A DNA stretch of 23,038 bases from Clostridia bacterium (lineage in GTDB: Bacteria > Bacillota > Clostridia > TANB77 > RGIG9151), in assembly GCA_016287855.1 (NCBI GenBank), contig JAEEXS010000015.1:1-23038 (forward strand). Direction: 5' to 3'. The notes below the pieces were generated by a model that ran no database searches, had not been told where the DNA came from, and was given only the letters and a program-made list of their open reading frames with translations. A program made the position numbers and the translations under genes. Shown one piece after another: positions 7,378 through 22,705 of the stretch (positions are counted from its first letter, which is position 1; every line of letters begins with the position of its first letter).

Positions 7378-8712
7378 TTAATAAAATAGAATTTTTTTAA
7401 TTTCTTCAATTTTTTTATTAAGCTCAGAATCTTCTTCAATATTCTTTGAAATCTTATTACAAGCATGAATAACGGTTGAATGGTCTCTTTTTCCAAATTC
7501 AAAGCCTATTTTCGGTAAAGACATGTTTGCAACATCTCTACATAGATACATTGCAATTTGTCTAGGAATTGCGATATCAGCGCTTTTTTTAGTTGATTTT
7601 AGATCTTCTACTTTTATATTAAAATATTTTGAAACAACTTTTTGAATAAGGTCTATTGTAATTGTTTTGGTAGGCGCGTTTGTAATGTCTTTTAATGCTT
7701 CTTTAGCTAAATCTAAAGTTAAAGGTTTATTGTTTAAATGTGCCAAAGCCAAAACCCTATTTAATGATCCTTCTAACTCTCTTATATTAGAATCTACTCT
7801 TTCAGCAATAAAGGCATTTATTTCATCTGGAACAGTTATACCATCAAGTTGCGCTTTTTTACTGAGTATTGCAATTCTAGTTTCATAGTCAGGTGCTTGT
7901 ACATCAGCCGTTAGTCCCCATTCAAATCTAGATCTTAACCTATCTTCTAAAGGTTCAATATCTTTTGGAGGTCTATCACTAGATATTATAATTTGCTTAT
8001 TAGCTTCATATAACGTATTAAAAGTATGGAAAAACTCTTCTTGTGTACCTTCTTTTCCAGCTATAAACTGAATATCATCTACTAAAAGAACATCAACATT
8101 TCTATATCTTTTTCTAAAAGCATTATTTCCTTCTGCACCCTGTTCTTTAATAGCATTTATAAAATCAATTATAAATTTTTCACATGTTATGTAAAGCACT
8201 TTTTGTTCAGGATGTTGTTGAAGTATGTAATGACCTATAGCATGCATCAAATGTGTTTTTCCTAAACCTACACCACCATATAAAAACAAAGGATTATAAG
8301 CTTTTGCAGGAGATTCAGCAACTGCTAGTGCAGCTGCATGAGCAAATCTATTGTTATTCCCTATTACAAAGTTTTCAAAAATATATCTAGGATTTAATCC
8401 AGTTGGAGTCTCATCCATATTTTTTTGACCTGGAAGCTTTATTTCTTCTTGTTTTTTAGCCTCTTCAGGTAAAAGATATTTTATATCTAAATCAACATTT
8501 TTAACGTATTTTATAGTATTTTTCAATAATTCATGTAAATTGGTTTGTAAATAGGTTTTATGAAAATCTGTAGGAACCTCTATAAAAAGAGTATTATTTT
8601 CAATATAAACAGGTTTAATAGGCGAAATCCAAGTATTAAAACTAATTACAGTTATTTCACCTTTTAAGCAATCTATAATTTTTTGCCATTCGTCGGTTGA
8701 GATATTTGCCAT
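7378..8712 (-). CDS. dnaA: chromosomal replication initiator DnaA
   Basis: 444 aa with Walker A GGVGLGKTHL, Walker B LLVDDIQF, sensor SDRPPKD, and the C-terminal DNA-binding helix FGKRDHSTVIHACNKI. Confidence 0.97.
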   Translation of the reverse strand: MANISTDEWQKIIDCLKGEITVISFNTWISPIKPVYIENNTLFIEVPTDFHKTYLQTNLHELLKNTIKYVKNVDLDIKYLLPEEAKKQEEIKLPGQKNMDETPTGLNPRYIFENFVIGNNNRFAHAAALAVAESPAKAYNPLFLYGGVGLGKTHLMHAIGHYILQQHPEQKVLYITCEKFIIDFINAIKEQGAEGNNAFRKRYRNVDVLLVDDIQFIAGKEGTQEEFFHTFNTLYEANKQIIISSDRPPKDIEPLEDRLRSRFEWGLTADVQAPDYETRIAILSKKAQLDGITVPDEINAFIAERVDSNIRELEGSLNRVLALAHLNNKPLTLDLAKEALKDITNAPTKTITIDLIQKVVSKYFNIKVEDLKSTKKSADIAIPRQIAMYLCRDVANMSLPKIGFEFGKRDHSTVIHACNKISKNIEEDSELNKKIEEIKKILFY

Positions 8713-9027
8713 ATTAGTCTCCTTTCAAAAAAATTAAACAAAAATCGCATAAAAACAAAGTTTATAAACAAAAAATTTCAAAGCATCACTATTTGTATAT
8801 GTTTTACCAACATGGGAATAATATAAAGTTATCCACATAGTTATGCACATGTGTTGATAAAGCATAAATAAAAGCTTTGAAATTTTTATCTTTTGTAATT
8901 AAAGTATTTTCGCATTGTTGATAAATTGTTGAATTAACAATATATATCAATATCAGTAACACTATAACAGAAAAAAGTATTATTTTCAAGAAAAAAATGA
9001 ATTAAGATTTTAAAATTCATATTTATA
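8713..9027. other. oriC segment upstream of dnaA, holding a DnaA-box cluster and the dnaA promoter region
   Basis: A perfect TTATCCACA lies at 8829-8837. TTATGCACA lies at 8841-8849. TGTTGATAA (rc TTATCAACA) occurs at 8852-8860 and 8917-8925. The three clustered boxes are bracketed by a perfect 14-nt inverted repeat, AAAAATTTCAAAGC 8771-8784 and GCTTTGAAATTTTT 8874-8887. Confidence 0.65.
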
Positions 9028-9056
9028 TTGAAATAGGGAATTAAACAATATAAAAT
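9028..9056 (+). promoter_or_regulatory. candidate sigma-A promoter of pcrA
   Basis: TTGAAA (9028-9033), a 17-nt spacer, then TAAAAT (9051-9056). This lies about 25 nt upstream of the pcrA ATG at 9081. Confidence 0.4.
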
Positions 9057-9080
9057 GTTTAGAGGAAAGAAGGTTAGAAG

Positions 9081-11342
9081 ATGATAGATTTAACTAAGTT
9101 AAATAAAGAACAATTAGAAGCTGTAAAGACTACAGAAGGCCCTTTATTAGTAATAGCAGGAGCGGGTTCAGGAAAAACAAGAGTTTTAACATATAGAATA
9201 GCTTATTTAATGGATGAAAAGAGTGTAAAACCTTATAATATATTGGCAATTACTTTTACAAATAAAGCTGCAAAAGAAATGAAGGAAAGAGTAGAAGATT
9301 TAGTAGGGGAGAGGGCACGAGATATATGGATATCTACTTTTCATGCAGCATGTGTAAGAATCTTACGGCGAGATATAGAAAAGATAGGCTATGACAAAAA
9401 TTTTGTTATTTTCGATACATCAGATCAAAAGACTTTAATAAAAGAATGTCAGAAAGAAGCTAATTTAGATGATAAAAACTTTTCATATCAATATTTAATA
9501 AGCGAAATAAGCAAGGCAAAAAACCAGCTAATAACAGCAAAAGACTATTTACGTCAAAATCAAACTAATTTTAGATTGGCTAAAGTCGCTGAAGTTTATG
9601 AATTGTATGAAAAAAGACTTAAAGAGAATAATGCTTTAGATTTTGATGATTTAATAATGAAAACTACAGAGCTTTTTCTATCAAATCCAGATATTTTGGT
9701 TTATTACCAAGATAAATTTAAATACATATTAATAGACGAATACCAAGATACTAACACAGCACAATTTACGTTAGTAAACCTACTTGCAGCAGGAAGTGGT
9801 AATTTATGCGTAGTAGGGGATGATGATCAAAGCATATATGGCTGGAGAGGCGCAGATATGCGGAATATATTGGATTTTGAGAAAGCTTTTCCAGGTGCAA
9901 AAACAATAAAACTAGAGCAAAACTATAGATCTACAGGAATAATACTAAATGCAGCAAATGAAGTTATAAAGAACAATGAAAACAGAAAAAGTAAAAAATT
10001 ATGGACAAAAAACGAAGAAGGGGAGCAAATACAGTTATATAGAGCAGATGATGAAAGAGATGAGGCTAAATATATAATAAATGAAATAAAAAGCATAGTA
10101 GATAGAGGTCAAAAATATTCAGATATAGGTGTTTTATACAGAATAAACGCACAATCGAGAATAATAGAAGATTATCTAATAAGCGAAGCTTTACCATACA
10201 AGGTAATAGGAGGACTAAAATTCTACGATAGAAAAGAAATAAAAGACGTTATGGCTTATTTAAGGGTATTATATAACCCAATGGATAATATAAGCCTTAA
10301 AAGGATAATAAATGAACCCAAAAGAGGTATAGGTAATACAACTTTAGAGAATGTTCAAAAAATTGCAACTGAAAACAATGTTTCTTGCTGGGAAATCTTA
10401 CGAAACGTAGATGTATAACGGGATATAAGTCGTTCAAAAAATGGAATAAAAGAGTTTATTAACGTAATGGAAAAGATAAAAGAAGAGGTAAATAAAGAAA
10501 ATCTTTTGGTATCTCAAATAATAAAGATGGTAGTGAACGAGACAGGGTATATAAGTGCATTAGAAGCAGAAGATAGTATAGAAAATCAAACAAGAATAGA
10601 AAATATTGCTGAATTTATATCAGTTGCAGAAGAATATGAAAAAGAAAGCTCTGAACCAAGCTTAGCTGACTTTTTAGAGAATATGGCTTTAATATCTGAT
10701 TTAGATACTAATGATGGTGAAGAAAGTGAATATGTGACGTTAATGACGATGCATAGTGCAAAAGGCCTAGAATTTCCAATAGTATTTATTCCAGGAATGG
10801 AAGAAGGGGTTTTCCCAGGGTATAGATCTATGGGAGATGAGGCAGAAATAGAAGAAGAAAGACGGTTATGTTATGTTGCAATAACAAGGGCAAGGGAAAA
10901 ACTTTATATAACCTGTGCAAGAAGAAGAACTTTATTTGGAAACACTAGTATAAATAAACCGTCTAGGTTTTTAGAGGAAATACCGGAAAGTCTAATGGAT
11001 GGATATACAAAAGAGAGTAATAATCAAGAATATATGGCAAATGACTGGTATTCTAGTAGTGTGATGGAATATAGTTTGCCAGATACATATAAAAATAACA
11101 TAGAAGTTGCTATGGGAAGTAATTATATAAAGAATATACAAGGCCATAAACAACCTGTAACGCAGATGCACGCTGACTTATCTGTTTTCGAAGAAGGTAA
11201 GTTTGTAATGCATAAAAGGTTTGGTGCAGGAGTAATTACCAAAATAACACCTGAAGAAGATGATTTAATGCTTGAAATATTATTTGAAAAAGCAGGGAAG
11301 AAGAGATTGATGGCAAAATATGCTCAATTGGAGGTGCAGTAG
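9081..11342 (+). pseudogene. pcrA: PcrA/UvrD-type ATP-dependent DNA helicase interrupted by a single in-frame TAA at 10416-10418
   Basis: Track ORFs 9081..10418 (445 aa, Walker A AGAGSGKT, DEYQDT, GDDDQSIYGWRGA, QNYRS) and 10467..11342 (291 aa, TLMTMHSAKGLEFP, VAITRAREKL) are in the same frame (both coordinates are 0 mod 3). The 48 nt between them also read in frame as RDISRSKNGIKEFINV. The total would be about 753 codons, a normal PcrA length. Confidence 0.8.
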
Positions 11343-11934
11343 GATTTTTACGGTAAAAGAAGAGGCAAGAGAAGAGTTTATAGAGAAAAAATCTAGATTT
11401 ATAGCGACTATTTTTCCTATAAACTCAAAAGAAGAAGCGGAAAATATTATACAAAGGGTAAAAAAAGAGTTTTGGGATGCAAAACATAATGTTTATGCAT
11501 ATATATTACCCAATAATATAAGTAAATATAGTGATGATGGTGAGCCGCAAGGAACAGCAGGGTTGCCTGTTTTTACTGTACTTAATAAAAAAGAGTTAGT
11601 AAATGTTCTAGTAGTTGTTACAAGGTATTTTGGAGGTGTTTTATTAGGAAAAGGCGGCTTAATAAGAGCATATTCTGAATCAGTGAAAAATGTCTTAGAA
11701 AAAGCAAAAATTTATGAAATAATAGAAAAAACTTGTATTGAAATAGAGTGTGAATATTCAATAAAAGATAAAATTTTAGATTATATAACGAAACATGAAA
11801 TCCAGCATACATCTGTATTTGAGAACAATGTAAAGTTTAAAATAGAAACCCCTAAGGGTTCAGAAAATAAAATTATAGAGGATATAGTCCAAATCACAAA
11901 TAACAAGGCAAATTATCGTATTTTGTCGGAATAA
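11320..11934 (+). CDS. yigZ: YigZ/IMPACT-family (UPF0029) protein
   Basis: 204 aa with KKSRFIATIFP, HNVYAYIL, DDGEPQGTAGLP and TRYFGGVLLGKGGLIRAY, all typical of the IMPACT N-terminal domain. The start is uncertain because the ATG at 11320 overlaps the pcrA 3' end. Confidence 0.8.
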   Translation: MLNWRCSRIFTVKEEAREEFIEKKSRFIATIFPINSKEEAENIIQRVKKEFWDAKHNVYAYILPNNISKYSDDGEPQGTAGLPVFTVLNKKELVNVLVVVTRYFGGVLLGKGGLIRAYSESVKNVLEKAKIYEIIEKTCIEIECEYSIKDKILDYITKHEIQHTSVFENNVKFKIETPKGSENKIIEDIVQITNNKANYRILSE

Positions 11935-12038
11935 AGCGAAAAAAAACAGAAATCATCGACAAATTCTAACATATTTTTACAAGACAAGCTTTTATAATAT
12001 TCTTGTGTTTTGTCTAAAAAATAAAGGGGGAATTTGCG

Positions 12039-12812
12039 ATGAACGAAGGAATAAGCGTTTTAATTGCTGATGGTAACGTAGATATAGCAAATAAATTAAA
12101 AGATTATCTATCACATCAGAAAGATATTTCGGTAGAAGGAGTAGTTGACAATGGTATAGACACGATTAGCATGATTTCAGAAAAGAAACCAGATATCGTA
12201 ATTTTAGAAATGTTACTACCCAAAATAGACGGAATAGGCGTACTAAAAGCAGTACAAGACAAGAAAATAGAAAAAAGACCTATATTTTTGGTTTTATCTT
12301 CCTTATCTCAAGATATTTTGATAAGAGAAGCTATTTCTTTGGGAGCGTATTGTTTTATGTTAAAACCATTTGATTTCTCTATTCTAACAGAAAGAATAAG
12401 AAGGATAATGCGAAAAGAAAAGAATGTAAAAATGGTAAAAAGAGAAAGAAAGATAACGGATGAAAATCTAGAACAAGAAATAACTAATATTATGCATGAT
12501 ATAGGCGTTCCGGCACATATTAGGGGTCATCAATACTTAAGAGAAGCAATTATACTTTCAATCAAGAATCAAGATTTATTAGCGTCTGTTACAAAGACGT
12601 TATATCCTACCGTAGCAACTACATATAATACAACGCCAAGTAGGGTAGAAAGAGCAATAAGACATGCTATAGAAGTGGCTTGGAGTAGGGGAAAGCTAGA
12701 CACCCTGCAAAATGTTTTTGGATATACAATAAACGTAATAAAAGGAAAACCAACTAATAGTGAATTTATTGCAATGATTGCAGATAGAATGAAATTAGAA
12801 ATGAAAGTATAA
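12039..12812 (+). CDS. spo0A: Spo0A, sporulation master response regulator, with an atypical receiver domain
   Basis: 257 aa. The C-terminal domain carries unmistakable Spo0A signatures: [47 protein letters not shown] and [18 protein letters not shown]. The N-terminal domain is CheY-like (MLKPF Lys present). An SD AAAGGGGG lies upstream. Confidence 0.9.
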
Positions 12813-12858
12813 AAAACAAAACCTGTAATGCAAGATACATCAGCATTACAGGTTTTTG
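12811..12858. terminator. bidirectional rho-independent terminator between spo0A and the convergent orphan gene
   Basis: The stem ACCTGTAATGC (12821-12831) pairs with GCATTACAGGT (12843-12853) around an 11-nt loop. An A-run lies on the left and a T-run on the right, so a U-tract follows the hairpin on both strands. Confidence 0.7.
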
Positions 12859-12859
12859 C

Positions 12860-13429
12860 TTAATATGTTCTGCCAGTAATTTGTAACTTATCTTCAGGAG
12901 ATAAAGCATCATATTCACTTTCATTTATAGGAATGCCATCATAAGAATCCATTATAGGATAATAAAATGAAGGAATATCCTGAACTAAATATGGTCTATA
13001 TTGGTCACAATAGTAAACATCAGGGCAGTAATTTAAATTTTGGATATCTGAACTATCAATTGGTTTTGATTTTTTGTCACATAGCGACAAAGCAGATAAA
13101 TTTGTACTATGAGATTGAGCTATAAAATTTGAATGTTCAGAATTATAATAATTATAAAACTGTTCAAAATATTCTTTTTTCTTTTCTTCATCCATCTCAT
13201 TTGCTGGCAAAGCCGGTAAAGAAGATGGAAAGTAATTTGAAAAATCCTTTTTTGGACAAGTAAAAATAGACACTTTTTTACCTGATGGAAGATCTTTAGC
13301 AATTTTTCTACACATAATGCAGTATGCACAGGAATATGGAATCGAACCAGAAACAGCGGTATTTATGGAAGTTGTTGCATCATCAAGAGTTCCATTTACA
13401 AAATCAGCAATTTTATCAAACCAGCCCAT
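12860..13429 (-). CDS. hypothetical Cys/Tyr-rich protein (189 aa), no recognised family
   Basis: I trimmed the track ORF 12860..13438 to the ATG at 13429-13427, which is preceded by the SD AGGTGA with a 5-nt spacer. The upstream carboxypeptidase stop (TGA 13437-13435) lies inside this SD region, indicating translational coupling. Composition matches the host. Confidence 0.55.
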   Translation of the reverse strand: MGWFDKIADFVNGTLDDATTSINTAVSGSIPYSCAYCIMCRKIAKDLPSGKKVSIFTCPKKDFSNYFPSSLPALPANEMDEEKKKEYFEQFYNYYNSEHSNFIAQSHSTNLSALSLCDKKSKPIDSSDIQNLNYCPDVYYCDQYRPYLVQDIPSFYYPIMDSYDGIPINESEYDALSPEDKLQITGRTY

Positions 13430-13434
13430 TATTA

Positions 13435-14697
13435 TCACCTATTTCCTTTCTTTCTACGATTTCTTTTAATAAATTTTCTAATTTCATTGAAAATTCTAAG
13501 GCTTACGCCTAATATTATAACAGAAATAACGAAATAAAGCAATATTCTAAGGATAACAAATATAACATGTTCTTTTTTTACATCATCTTGGGCTACTAAG
13601 TTGACTATTCCAATAGGTTTACCATCCATTGTATAAGAAATAGTGCCAAGCACATCTCCTTTATTTATAGGAGCAACTATCTTGTTATTTATAGTAGTAA
13701 CATGGTCAAACACAGGTGTATCCCCATTTTTAACGGTTATGTTTAAGCTATCTGCAGCTGCTAAATTTAATGTTTTTTTGCCAGATTTTTTAGGAACACA
13801 ACTTGTAATTATTTTATTTTGAGCTACAAGTTGTTCATTATGATAGTTTTCAAAGCCATAATCAAATAATGAAATAGTGTCTGTAAAAGCAGTTGACTTG
13901 TTTACAGGAATAATACTACCTCCAAGAACTACAGATATTAAATCTAAGCCATCTTTTGAAGCAGAAGCTACTAAGCAATTACCAGCTTGAGTGGTAAAAC
14001 CAGTTTTAATACCAGTAGCGTATGGGTAAAAATACTCCCCACCAGATAATAATAGTTTATTAGTATTTAAGAATGTTCTAGAGGTTTTAGAAATATTTGT
14101 AGCTGGCATATCGTATTTTGATTGAGAAACTATTTCTCTAAACTTTTCTATTTTCATACAAGCACAAGCTATTTTAGCTAAATCTGCAGCGGTTGTATAG
14201 TGATTATCATTATGTAACCCATTTGCATTTACAAAATTAGAATTTATTGCACCGAGATTTTTAGCAGTTGAGTTCATTAAATCAGCAAAATCAGATACAG
14301 AGCCAGATATATGTTCCGCTAAAATGTTTGCAGCATCGTTTCCAGAAGGAAGCATAAGACCGTACAAGACTTGTTCTAAATTAAGAATCTCATTTTCAGA
14401 GAAATAAGCTAATGAACTACCTTTTGGAACCGACATAACAGCAGTTCTAGATGGAATAATCTGTTCTTTCATGGTATATCCTTGAGAAAGTGCAATATAA
14501 GCGGTTAAAATCTTTGTTGTACTAGCAGGATATACTTTTTGATTTGAGTTTTTTTCAAATAATACTTCACCTGTTTTACCATCTATTAAAATCGCTGAAT
14601 TGCTGTATACATCTATCGCATAGGATTTTGATATAAGTAATAAAAAGGTAAATACAAATAAAAGTAAAAATCTTTTTCGTAATATAAAGTTTTTCAT
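13435..14697 (-). CDS. D-alanyl-D-alanine carboxypeptidase (low-MW PBP, PBP5/DacB/DacF family) with a C-terminal membrane anchor
   Basis: 420 aa with an N-terminal signal-like segment and the three penicillin-binding motifs: SxxK (ASTTKILT), SxN (PSGND) and KTG (IKTGFT). A hydrophobic C-terminal anchor (VIFVILRILLYFVISVIILGV) follows. Confidence 0.85.
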   Translation of the reverse strand: MKNFILRKRFLLLFVFTFLLLISKSYAIDVYSNSAILIDGKTGEVLFEKNSNQKVYPASTTKILTAYIALSQGYTMKEQIIPSRTAVMSVPKGSSLAYFSENEILNLEQVLYGLMLPSGNDAANILAEHISGSVSDFADLMNSTAKNLGAINSNFVNANGLHNDNHYTTAADLAKIACACMKIEKFREIVSQSKYDMPATNISKTSRTFLNTNKLLLSGGEYFYPYATGIKTGFTTQAGNCLVASASKDGLDLISVVLGGSIIPVNKSTAFTDTISLFDYGFENYHNEQLVAQNKIITSCVPKKSGKKTLNLAAADSLNITVKNGDTPVFDHVTTINNKIVAPINKGDVLGTISYTMDGKPIGIVNLVAQDDVKKEHVIFVILRILLYFVISVIILGVSLRIFNEIRKFIKRNRRKKGNR

Positions 14698-15459: not shown

Positions 15460-15951
15460 TCAGAAGGGGGAAATGCAGAGGATGTTGGCGCTGTCGAGAA
15501 TAACGGGGATGGCCGCAGTACCAGGTACACGAACGTAAGTTATGTAGGAATATTCGGAGTGGAACCACATATCCTCGAACCATTCCATAAGGAGAATTTC
15601 AAAATCCTTTGAAAAACCTATCTTTTCTTCAGAAATAACCATGAAGTACTGGTAGCCATCAGGCTCCATTTTAACCTTGAAATGCTTTTTGGTGTGAGGT
15701 GTAGGGAATTGCTCACCCTCGTCACGGTAATACTCGAGGTCGGTGATAGGGGTGATGCTGATGTGGTCTGCTTTCCAGTATCCGCTGGGCAAAGCAGTAA
15801 CGTCTAACTCGGAAAATGGGATGTCAGCGAGGCAGGGAAGAACGACAGTTTTGTTGACCTTCTGCAGATACCAGCCGGTATGCTGCTTTAGGCAATCACC
15901 TTGAACGAAGACAGCAGTAGTGTTTCCAGTATCAGTCTCTTTGGGTTTCAT
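15460..15951 (-). CDS. hypothetical acidic, aromatic-rich protein (163 aa) of foreign base composition
   Basis: The ATG at 15951-15949 has a perfect SD AGGAGG (15965-15960) 8 nt upstream. The ORF fills the GC-rich island exactly. I recognise no motif, TM segment or signal peptide. Confidence 0.7.
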   Translation of the reverse strand: MKPKETDTGNTTAVFVQGDCLKQHTGWYLQKVNKTVVLPCLADIPFSELDVTALPSGYWKADHISITPITDLEYYRDEGEQFPTPHTKKHFKVKMEPDGYQYFMVISEEKIGFSKDFEILLMEWFEDMWFHSEYSYITYVRVPGTAAIPVILDSANILCISPF

Positions 15952-22560: not shown

Positions 22561-22580
22561 TTCGACAAAATTCGACAAAA
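22561..22580 (-). promoter_or_regulatory. two perfect tandem Spo0A-box (0A box, TGTCGAA) sequences with 10-bp phasing
   Basis: The plus strand reads TTCGACAAAATTCGACAAAA. The reverse complement gives TGTCGAA at 22567-22561 and 22577-22571. It is an exact 10-bp tandem duplication about 100 bp upstream of the soj -35 box. Confidence 0.5.
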
Positions 22581-22676: not shown

Positions 22677-22705
22677 TTGACAGATTTAGAATATTTGTAT
22701 ATTAT
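22677..22705 (+). promoter_or_regulatory. candidate sigma-A promoter of soj
   Basis: TTGACA (22677-22682), a 17-nt spacer, then TATTAT (22700-22705). Confidence 0.4.

Follow-up and report, generated by a model that had tools for sequence, protein, structure and literature searches.

Can Spo0A work as a regulator when its receiver domain lacks the aspartate that accepts phosphate, and if so, what controls it? This question is raised by the spo0A gene on contig JAEEXS010000015.1 of a Clostridia bacterium (assembly GCA_016287855.1), of which positions 1 to 23,038 were analyzed; this whole stretch of 23,038 nucleotides is referred to here as the window. An initial annotation of the window proposed that the encoded Spo0A carries Glu in place of the phospho-acceptor Asp, next to a disrupted acidic pocket. 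We followed up this proposal with domain searches, alignments to solved structures, a structural model, and comparisons with related proteins and loci. With Glu as its acceptor residue and a kinase-docking surface that has ceased to be conserved, the protein is probably controlled without phosphorylation.

Identity of the protein and its active-site residues

The gene and its two domains occupy the following positions:

12039..12812, forward strand: spo0A coding sequence, 257 amino acids plus stop, ATG start (open reading frame (ORF) list, TIGR02875, Pfam)
12051..12425, forward strand: receiver (pseudo-receiver) domain, residues 5-129, canonical (beta-alpha)5 fold (PF00072, AlphaFold DSSP, Foldseek)
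12468..12809, forward strand: Spo0A_C DNA-binding and trans-activation domain, residues 144-257, canonical throughout (PF08769, 1FC3/1LQ1, Foldseek)

The start codon is preceded by the Shine-Dalgarno-like sequence AAAGGGGGA. The protein matches the NCBIfam Spo0A equivalog TIGR02875 over its full length, with a score of 323.3 bits (cut-off 200) across model positions 3-261 of 262. Pfam places Response_reg (PF00072) on residues 7-121 (2e-16) and Spo0A_C (PF08769) on residues 148-250 (7e-44). Against the solved effector domains 1FC3 and 1LQ1, the C-terminal part of the protein aligns at 1e-45 and has identical recognition-helix residues; the description of this domain as textbook Spo0A is thus borne out. 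An AlphaFold2 model of the protein (mean predicted local distance difference test score, pLDDT, 82.9) has the canonical (beta-alpha)5 receiver topology, in which DSSP assigns strands to residues 5-10, 30-36, 53-57, 82-87, and 103-108 and helices to residues 14-25, 39-49, 65-74, 92-100, and 113-129. Foldseek superposes the receiver on Spo0A-N (1QMP) with a root-mean-square deviation of 0.9-1.0 Å and the effector domain on 1FC3 and 1LQ1 with deviations of 1.1-1.9 Å.

Four sites of the receiver bear on its capacity to accept phosphate:

12069..12074, forward strand: acidic pair, D11 (GAT) retained and G12 (GGT) in place of the second Mg2+-binding Asp (alignments)
12207..12209, forward strand: codon 57 (GAA), which puts Glu where B. 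subtilis Spo0A has the phospho-acceptor Asp56 (alignments, multiple sequence alignment, model)
12297..12299, forward strand: S87, conserved Ser/Thr switch residue (T86 in B. subtilis), retained (alignment, model)
12363..12365, forward strand: K109, conserved active-site Lys (K108 in B. subtilis), retained (alignment)

Residue numbers in the window protein exceed those of B. subtilis Spo0A by one, such that G12 corresponds to Asp11, E57 to Asp56, S87 to Thr86, F106 to Phe105, and K109 to Lys108. The phmmer alignments to the B. subtilis (9phz_E) and G. stearothermophilus (1dz3_A) Spo0A-N domains are gap-free and place ‘IADGNVD’ on ‘VADDNRE’. The 14-residue acceptor segment likewise aligns without gaps on DVLVLDIIMPHLDG of the reference Spo0A-N. 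In a multiple sequence alignment with B. subtilis Spo0A-N as the reference, the key columns of that reference read D, D, D, T, F, K. In the model, beta3 (53-57) ends with E57, beta4 ends with S87, and K109 comes directly after beta5; these are the canonical active-site positions. A misaligned acceptor column is ruled out by the gap-free alignments to solved receivers, the agreement of the B. subtilis-referenced alignment, and the topology of the model.

The Asp at the end of beta3 is therefore replaced by Glu57, and the Asp10-Asp11 pair is incomplete, with D11 present and Gly at position 12. The aromatic switch residue F106 is retained. All three of S87, F106, and K109 are invariant across the clade described below, and the S87 column is invariant in 140 of 140 aligned proteins. 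These results reproduce the residue assignments of the initial annotation: both the phmmer alignments and the referenced multiple alignment put Glu57 (GAA, 12207-12209) in the acceptor column and no Asp there, the Gly encoded by GGT at 12072-12074 falls on Asp11 in the gap-free alignment, and the Ser/Thr (‘LVLSS’) and Lys (‘MLKPF’) it listed as kept are S87 and K109.

Conservation of the glutamate across a clade

Homology searches recovered a tight clade of Spo0A proteins that share 73-100% identity, comprising 43 full-length sequences in 24 clusters at 90% identity. The acceptor column is Glu in all 43, and this group is referred to here as the E clade. Its next relatives, at no more than 61% identity, have Asp in this column. 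The host lineage consists of uncultured Clostridia of low guanine-plus-cytosine (GC) content (~30%) from rumen and gut metagenomes; a genome-collection scan returned a single member of the clade (L001). The reading frame of spo0A is intact in every member.

The Glu57 codon is neither a chance event nor an error, because an identical 257-residue protein is present on 14 contigs (from JGI, ENA, NCBI, and Logan, one of them from a bovine metagenome sample), Glu is found in 43 of 43 members, and both GAA and GAG are used at codon 57, a synonymous turnover in which Glu is kept. A sequencing or assembly error is ruled out on the same grounds. In place of raw reads, independent assemblies and clade conservation thus back the reading of GAA at 12207-12209. 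Of the two substitutions, E57 is kept in all of these close relatives and G12 only in most. Position 12 is mostly Gly, with Asp in one protein (P0022) and Glu in three (P0023, P0024, P0138), and the codons seen there are GGT, GGC, GGA, and GAA. It behaves like a site that hardly matters any more.

Constraint on the receiver and relaxation of the docking helix

Within the E clade, the receiver has Nei-Gojobori ratios of nonsynonymous to synonymous substitution rates (dN/dS) of 0.04-0.17 and the effector domain has ratios of 0.02-0.10, values that are approximate because dS is saturated. Receiver identity in the clade is equal to or higher than that of Asp-bearing Spo0As at matched identity of the C-terminal domain; in the 80-85% bin, for example, it is 0.74 versus 0.66. 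The receiver is clearly not decaying and is under strong purifying selection. Two segments depart from the canonical pattern:

12078..12113, forward strand: helix alpha1, residues 14-25, which holds most of the kinase/Spo0B specificity positions and is relaxed in the clade (pairwise identity)
12210..12218, forward strand: M58-L59-L60, clade-fixed, replacing the I-I-M that lines the aspartyl pocket (clade alignment)

Davidson et al. (PMC6136694) described seven receiver specificity positions that are conserved in Spo0A across the Firmicutes and that read NELLEYD in B. subtilis. Our alignment returns exactly this string for the B. subtilis protein, which validates the mapping of positions. The window protein reads NDIKDYD, where canonical clostridial Spo0As have strings similar to NEFIEYD; strings of other E-clade members include NELKQYD, NEMKDFD, and NEIQTFD. 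To keep background divergence equal, the comparison was made where the rest of the receiver is 75-90% identical. At the seven positions, pairwise identity is 55-57% in the E clade compared with 95-99% in canonical Spo0As with a complete acidic pair and acceptor Asp (DD-D). At exposed alpha1 positions, the corresponding values are 25-33% and 73-84%. Such a pattern would be expected of a receiver whose phosphodonor-docking face is no longer constrained but which otherwise remains functional. The relaxation is meaningful because Spo0A specificity residues are otherwise conserved across the Firmicutes (PMC6136694). An earlier form of the argument, based on lost hydrophobic docking residues at alpha1 positions 16 and 19, was weakened by the presence of Thr at position 19 in 56 of 80 genome-derived canonical Spo0As; it was replaced by the seven-position analysis matched for background divergence.

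Other sites have become fixed. M58, L59, and L60 occur in 23-24 of 24 clade representatives and in 0-9 of 95 Asp-bearing Spo0As. I58 is among the residues named in the aspartyl pocket and in dimerisation (10.1101/2022.02.07.479450). Further substitutions that the clade has fixed, and that are seen seldom or not at all outside it, are K70, A71, Q73, K75, and K76 in and after alpha3, S88, L89, and I95 in beta4-alpha4 and around alpha4, and S114, E118, and R122 in alpha5.

Position of the gene and orthology

The window begins with a NuoF/NuoE-like hydrogenase pair on the reverse strand, three small ORFs, and recF-dnaN-dnaA on the reverse strand. The genes pcrA-yigZ-spo0A follow on the forward strand, and then a 192-residue ORF and dac, encoding a PBP5-type D-Ala-D-Ala carboxypeptidase, on the reverse strand. 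A comEA-like gene (forward), a 163-residue ORF (reverse), and rpmH-rnpA-yidD-yidC-jag-mnmE-mnmG-rsmG with soj/parA (forward) complete the window. The order nuoEF-like, recF-dnaN-dnaA, pcrA-yigZ-spo0A, hyp-dac (hyp being a hypothetical gene), comEA, rpmH-rnpA-yidC-jag-mnmEG-rsmG is common to all E-clade loci (L081-L092). The same order is found in two Asp-bearing sisters, one with a complete pocket (L093; protein P0026, DD-D, 60% identity) and one with an Asp-Asn pair (L094; protein P0043, DN-D, 55%). As this synteny includes Asp-bearing sisters, the Asp-to-Glu change occurred in place, at the ancestral spo0A locus. By its position, the window gene is the orthologue of spo0A and no stray paralogue.

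The sign of the GC skew flips at ~8700-9080 (about 8.7-9.0 kb), between the divergent dnaA (reverse) and pcrA (forward), and the window probably contains oriC. The spo0A start lies ~3.3 kb from that of dnaA, an unusual origin-proximal site shared by the E clade, L093, and L094. The initial annotation also remarked on the absence of spoIVB, the usual neighbor of spo0A, upstream of the gene. The absence itself is correct, as yigZ and pcrA lie upstream of the gene, but it is not diagnostic. The yigZ-spo0A adjacency is a common context in related loci: yigZ adjoins spo0A in 57 of 80 loci from related species-representative genomes, nearly all of them with a canonical pocket, and a SpoIVB-like gene is detectable in 13 of the 80 by single-query tblastn, a search of limited sensitivity.

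Recurrence of aspartate loss in Spo0A

Changes at the acceptor are not confined to the E clade. P0041 has an Asp-Asn pair and Glu at the acceptor position (DN-E), and it is nested among DN-D relatives such as P0044; judged from this placement, it is a second, independent Asp-to-Glu change within the same broad lineage. The DN-D sister clade (P0029, P0034, P0035, P0042-P0044, P0051, P0061; locus L094) keeps the acceptor Asp alongside its Asp-Asn pair, and its specificity strings, such as NADNDYD and NTDNDYE, are strongly divergent and variable. This clade suggests that the phosphodonor interface can be lost earlier than the acceptor Asp. A further protein, encoded at L036:2200-2964 (forward strand) in the GTDB species representative ‘uncultured Eubacteriales bacterium SRP315200_co2_208’, has a DC-E pocket (‘VDCNED’, ‘VILEMILP’), 52% identity, a different genomic context, and a TIGR02875 score of 326 bits. 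Asp-to-Glu has arisen independently in this protein as well.

The wider frequency of such proteins was estimated from an exhaustive HMMER search. Among 126 full-length representatives of 50%-identity clusters (P0149-P0289), drawn from the top 150 hits to an E-type query, the acceptor column is D in 108, E in 9, S in 3, G in 3, N in 2, and Y in 1. Asp is therefore absent from 18 of 126 (14%), a proportion in which rare divergent sequences are over-weighted by the use of cluster representatives and to which some paralogues may contribute. About a third of the other, Asp-bearing representatives have a non-acidic residue in the acidic pair. The 18 representatives without Asp, P0041, and the L036 protein all score above the TIGR02875 cut-off (232-335 bits). 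A 2015 census of aspartate-less receivers (ALRs) had already counted 7 such proteins among 391 of the Response_reg~Spo0A_C architecture in Pfam 26, without discussion (PMC4395418, S6 Table). The suggestion in the initial annotation that this state was undescribed for Spo0A consequently overstated its uniqueness. The case belongs to the known class of aspartate-less receivers and is less singular than was held.

The representative search also returned, among its top-scoring matches, receiver-less proteins with up to four tandem Spo0A_C domains: P0142 (439 amino acids, four domains), P0144 (454 amino acids, four domains), P0143, and P0147. The repeats differ from each other and so do not look like assembly duplications. 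Such proteins could represent another route to multivalent 0A-box binding without phosphorylation-driven dimerisation.

Comparison with known systems

The window protein has the same two-domain architecture and fold as the canonical Spo0As of B. subtilis, G. stearothermophilus, and C. difficile (1QMP, 1DZ3, 1FC3, 1LQ1, 9PHZ). Its effector domain is 60-63% identical to theirs with an identical recognition-helix motif, and the equivalents of D10, T/S86, F105, and K108 are all present. It differs in the replacement of Asp56 by Glu, of Asp11 by Gly, and of I58-I59-M60 by M-L-L. The specificity positions differ as well, with NDIKDYD, variable within the clade, in place of NELLEYD or NEFIEYD. In addition, the gene lies near dnaA at the inferred origin and follows yigZ rather than spoIVB.

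Among aspartate-less receivers with Glu at the acceptor position, such as ChxR of Chlamydia and the plant pseudo-response regulators, the receiver likewise matches PF00072 without an acceptor Asp. Glu is the commonest replacement of the acceptor in this class, the second acidic residue is usually lost, and the Lys and Thr/Ser are usually kept (PMC4395418; PMC12632262, a 2025 review). The window protein shows this commonest pattern, with D changed to E, the second acidic residue lost, and the first acidic residue, Lys, and Ser/Thr kept. The same two sources put forward the hypothesis that the Glu is a partial phosphomimic that contacts the conserved T and K. Two differences stand out. The output domain here is Spo0A_C, and none with this output is characterized in the literature searched. 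Moreover, a whole clade shares the aspartate-less state, its proteins are orthologues of a canonical regulator, and relaxation of the docking helix goes with that state.

Response regulators active without phosphate are also known from the laboratory. The B. subtilis Spo0A-sad67 variant is a deletion in the receiver, with no point change. It is used as a constitutively active Spo0A, and engineered NtrC D54E-type phosphomimics, in which Glu at the acceptor site is a partial mimic of aspartyl-phosphate, embody a like idea (references 31-33 of PMC4395418, as cited there). These are laboratory mutants, whereas the aspartate-less state of the window Spo0A is natural, ancient, and maintained by selection. 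A looser analogy may be drawn with BldM and WhiI of Streptomyces, which are also developmental (sporulation) masters of the response-regulator type and are called orphan and atypical (PMC4125116). They belong to another phylum, have another output domain, and act in an unrelated sporulation process.

Putative 0A boxes

Candidate Spo0A-binding sites were found upstream of spo0A:

11924-11930, forward strand: 0A-box-like element TGTCGGA, which is TGTCGAA in other clade members (upstream alignment)
11955-11961, reverse strand: 0A-box-like element TGTCGAT, inverted (upstream alignment)

Both elements and a TATAAT (11993-11998) located 5' of spo0A are conserved across the E clade in an alignment of nine loci. 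They could provide autoregulation. Elsewhere in the window, a tandem pair of perfect boxes, TGTCGAA-nnn-TGTCGAA, lies on the reverse strand at 22561-22577 in the ~330-bp intergenic region between rsmG and soj, where it precedes a TTGACA (about 22678-22683) by ~100 bp. These are the only two exact TGTCGAA sequences in the window, compared with 0.96 expected by chance. The pair is absent from related loci, and the window diverges from L081 after about 22300. There are no exact 0A boxes in the dnaA-pcrA origin region.

Interpretation and alternative explanations

We consider it reasonably likely that the window encodes a functional aspartate-less pseudo-receiver Spo0A, one that would take up no phosphate, in which Glu57 would act in the manner of a partial phosphomimic and control would lie at the level of expression or of a partner. 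One part of this interpretation can be held with considerably more confidence: the protein is very likely not a substrate for His-Asp phosphotransfer. Another part is put forward only tentatively, namely that Glu57 and the co-fixed M58-L59-L60 may bias the receiver towards the active, dimerising state, with control then exerted at the protein level. The core proposal of the initial annotation, that the protein has no normal phospho-acceptor and is probably phosphorylation-independent, is strengthened by the clade-wide Glu, the drifting position 12, and the relaxed specificity positions.

In mechanistic terms, Spo0A would no longer receive phosphate from His-Asp transfer. Glu57 would reach towards S87 and K109 and, together with M58-L59-L60, would tip the receiver to an active, dimerisation-competent state, and 0A boxes would then be bound without phosphorylation. 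The on/off decision would have moved to the amount of protein, for example through the 0A-like boxes of its own promoter or the origin-proximal position of the gene. Alternatively, it may have moved to a partner that binds the conserved faces of the receiver outside alpha1. The output of such a Spo0A might be either endospore formation or another stationary-phase program. The role of sporulation master regulator that the initial annotation gave the protein is a presumed one in this organism: no sporulation-specific genes were seen within the ~30-kb context around spo0A.

Several points weigh against this interpretation. Asp-to-Glu alone was insufficient to make B. subtilis Spo0A constitutive (Green et al. 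1991, as cited in PMC4395418), and the phosphomimic step accordingly assumes a dependence on the co-fixed neighboring changes. There are pseudo-receivers whose activity demonstrably does not come from the residue at the D position (PMC12632262). The AlphaFold model cannot separate active from inactive receiver conformations, and the saturation of dS blunts the estimates of selection. The likeness to phosphorylated 1QMP found by Foldseek was dropped as a sign of the active conformation, given that the unphosphorylated 1DZ3 is domain-swapped and AlphaFold is blind to such states. A literature search for Spo0A D56E or for aspartate-less or atypical Spo0A returned the census table and no characterization.

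The points on the Asp-to-Glu change and on the D position lend themselves to a different explanation, in which Glu57 is no phosphomimic and the DNA-binding domain is held inactive or monomeric until a protein, a small molecule, or a redox or other modification acts on the faces of the receiver outside alpha1. The clade-specific substitutions in alpha3, beta4-alpha4, and alpha5 are invariant within the clade, as would befit a new interface, and reviews list pseudo-receivers controlled by partners, redox state, or dimerisation (PMC12632262, PMC4395418). However, no candidate partner specific to the E clade was found, as the 192- and 163-residue ORFs lie equally beside the genes of Asp-bearing sisters, and the strict retention of Glu through synonymous turnover together with S87, F106, and K109 suggests that an acidic side chain in the pocket matters. 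We regard gating by a partner or ligand as unlikely, though a serious contender. Much less probable is continued phosphorylation, whether as an acyl-phosphate on Glu57 or by a kinase that acts on another residue. The protein retains D11, S87, and K109, a few members of the clade again have D or E at position 12, and Glu can in principle bear a phosphoryl group, but PMC4395418 knows of no bacterial signaling case of Glu phosphorylation. In addition, most members lack one Mg2+ ligand, constraint on the kinase/Spo0B docking positions is gone, and the neighbors of position 57 (L56 and M58) include no Ser/Thr; we consider this explanation highly improbable.

It is likewise improbable, if slightly less so, that a canonical, phosphorylatable spo0A elsewhere in the genome does the work and that the window gene is a specialized, diverged paralogue. 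Multiple spo0A genes do occur: in a survey of 118 Spo0A-encoding genomes, ten had two paralogues and one had three (10.1101/2022.02.25.481979). The remaining 107 had a single gene, however, and a second receiver or Spo0A match was found in none of the 80 genome loci. The window gene also occupies the locus of the Asp-bearing sister genes, within the widespread yigZ-spo0A adjacency. The least credible explanation, with hardly any probability, is that the gene is a decaying relic on the way to a pseudogene in a non-sporulating lineage, or that the Glu is a base-call artefact. The same survey reports that many non-spore-formers encode Spo0A, such that Spo0A alone is no predictor of sporulation, and pcrA in the window shows one suspicious nonsense change of a single base. 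Decay is nevertheless countered by purifying selection on both domains, by frames free of frameshifts and stops in every member, and by dN/dS values that are not near 1. An artefact is refuted by the 14 independent contigs and the retention of Glu through synonymous changes.

Other features of the window

Additional features were recorded around spo0A:

12818..12856, forward strand: intrinsic-terminator-like hairpin followed by a U-run, between the convergent spo0A and 192-residue ORF (RNA fold)
12860-13438, reverse strand: Cys-rich ORF of 192 residues, convergent with spo0A
15460-15951, reverse strand: ORF of 163 residues
3996-4844, forward strand: three Lys/Asn/Asp-rich ORFs of ~84-99 residues

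The hairpin has a folding energy of -18.4 kcal/mol (z = -6.0), and none of 200 shuffled sequences was equally stable. It went unreported in a simple terminator scan, which allows loops of 3-8 nt; its own loop of 11 nt is the probable reason. The 192-residue, 163-residue, and three ~90-residue ORFs gave no credible match to Pfam or NCBIfam, even at E-values up to 1. These unassigned flanking ORFs are syntenic in relatives, including Asp-bearing ones, and some are absent from single loci such as L094.

The pcrA gene is split by an in-frame TAA at 10416-10418, where the close relatives L081 and L082 have TAC (Tyr). It is consequently present as two ORFs (9081-10418 and 10467-11342), while contigs with an identical Spo0A encode a PcrA of 753 residues. 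The TAA may be a real nonsense mutation, at the level of the strain, in a helicase that is normally essential; otherwise it is an assembly error of one base. Walking along contigs revealed only parA-parB-DUF4446 and either a mobile-element fragment or a HIT gene. On the 78-kb contig ERZ27270630 k105_33546, a Mob_Pre relaxase gene and a Cys_rich_VLP gene follow parB-DUF4446 (L095:18551-20596); L096 carries a HIT-family gene at this site. The two loci differ by the insertion of a small mobile element, a polymorphism close to the origin.

Significance

Work on the initiation of sporulation rests on phosphorylated Spo0A (Spo0A~P). What is already known is the aspartate-less receiver class and the census count for receiver-Spo0A_C proteins; what is new here is a clade-wide, orthologous aspartate-less Spo0A with relaxation of the docking helix. 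The census presented here suggests that aspartate-less Spo0As are not rare among uncultured Firmicutes, which matters for the metagenomic prediction of sporulation with spo0A as a marker. It is a bolder and rather doubtful extension that the whole clade of gut and rumen Clostridia, and with it a sizeable share of Spo0A diversity, might start a Spo0A-dependent program (possibly endospore formation) without phosphotransfer, the decision being made by expression, origin dosage, or a partner.

Such an extension, if correct, would contradict the working assumption that phosphorylation activates all Spo0A proteins. A natural, selected, orthologous, and non-phosphorylatable Spo0A would show that the switch can be rewired without phosphate input. 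Structural and genetic work would also gain a Spo0A that is already constitutive, or gated in another way, as found in nature. Research on two-component systems would have in it a clean example of how a pseudo-receiver arises from a known ancestor: the pocket is altered and the docking helix loses constraint, but the remainder of the domain is still constrained.

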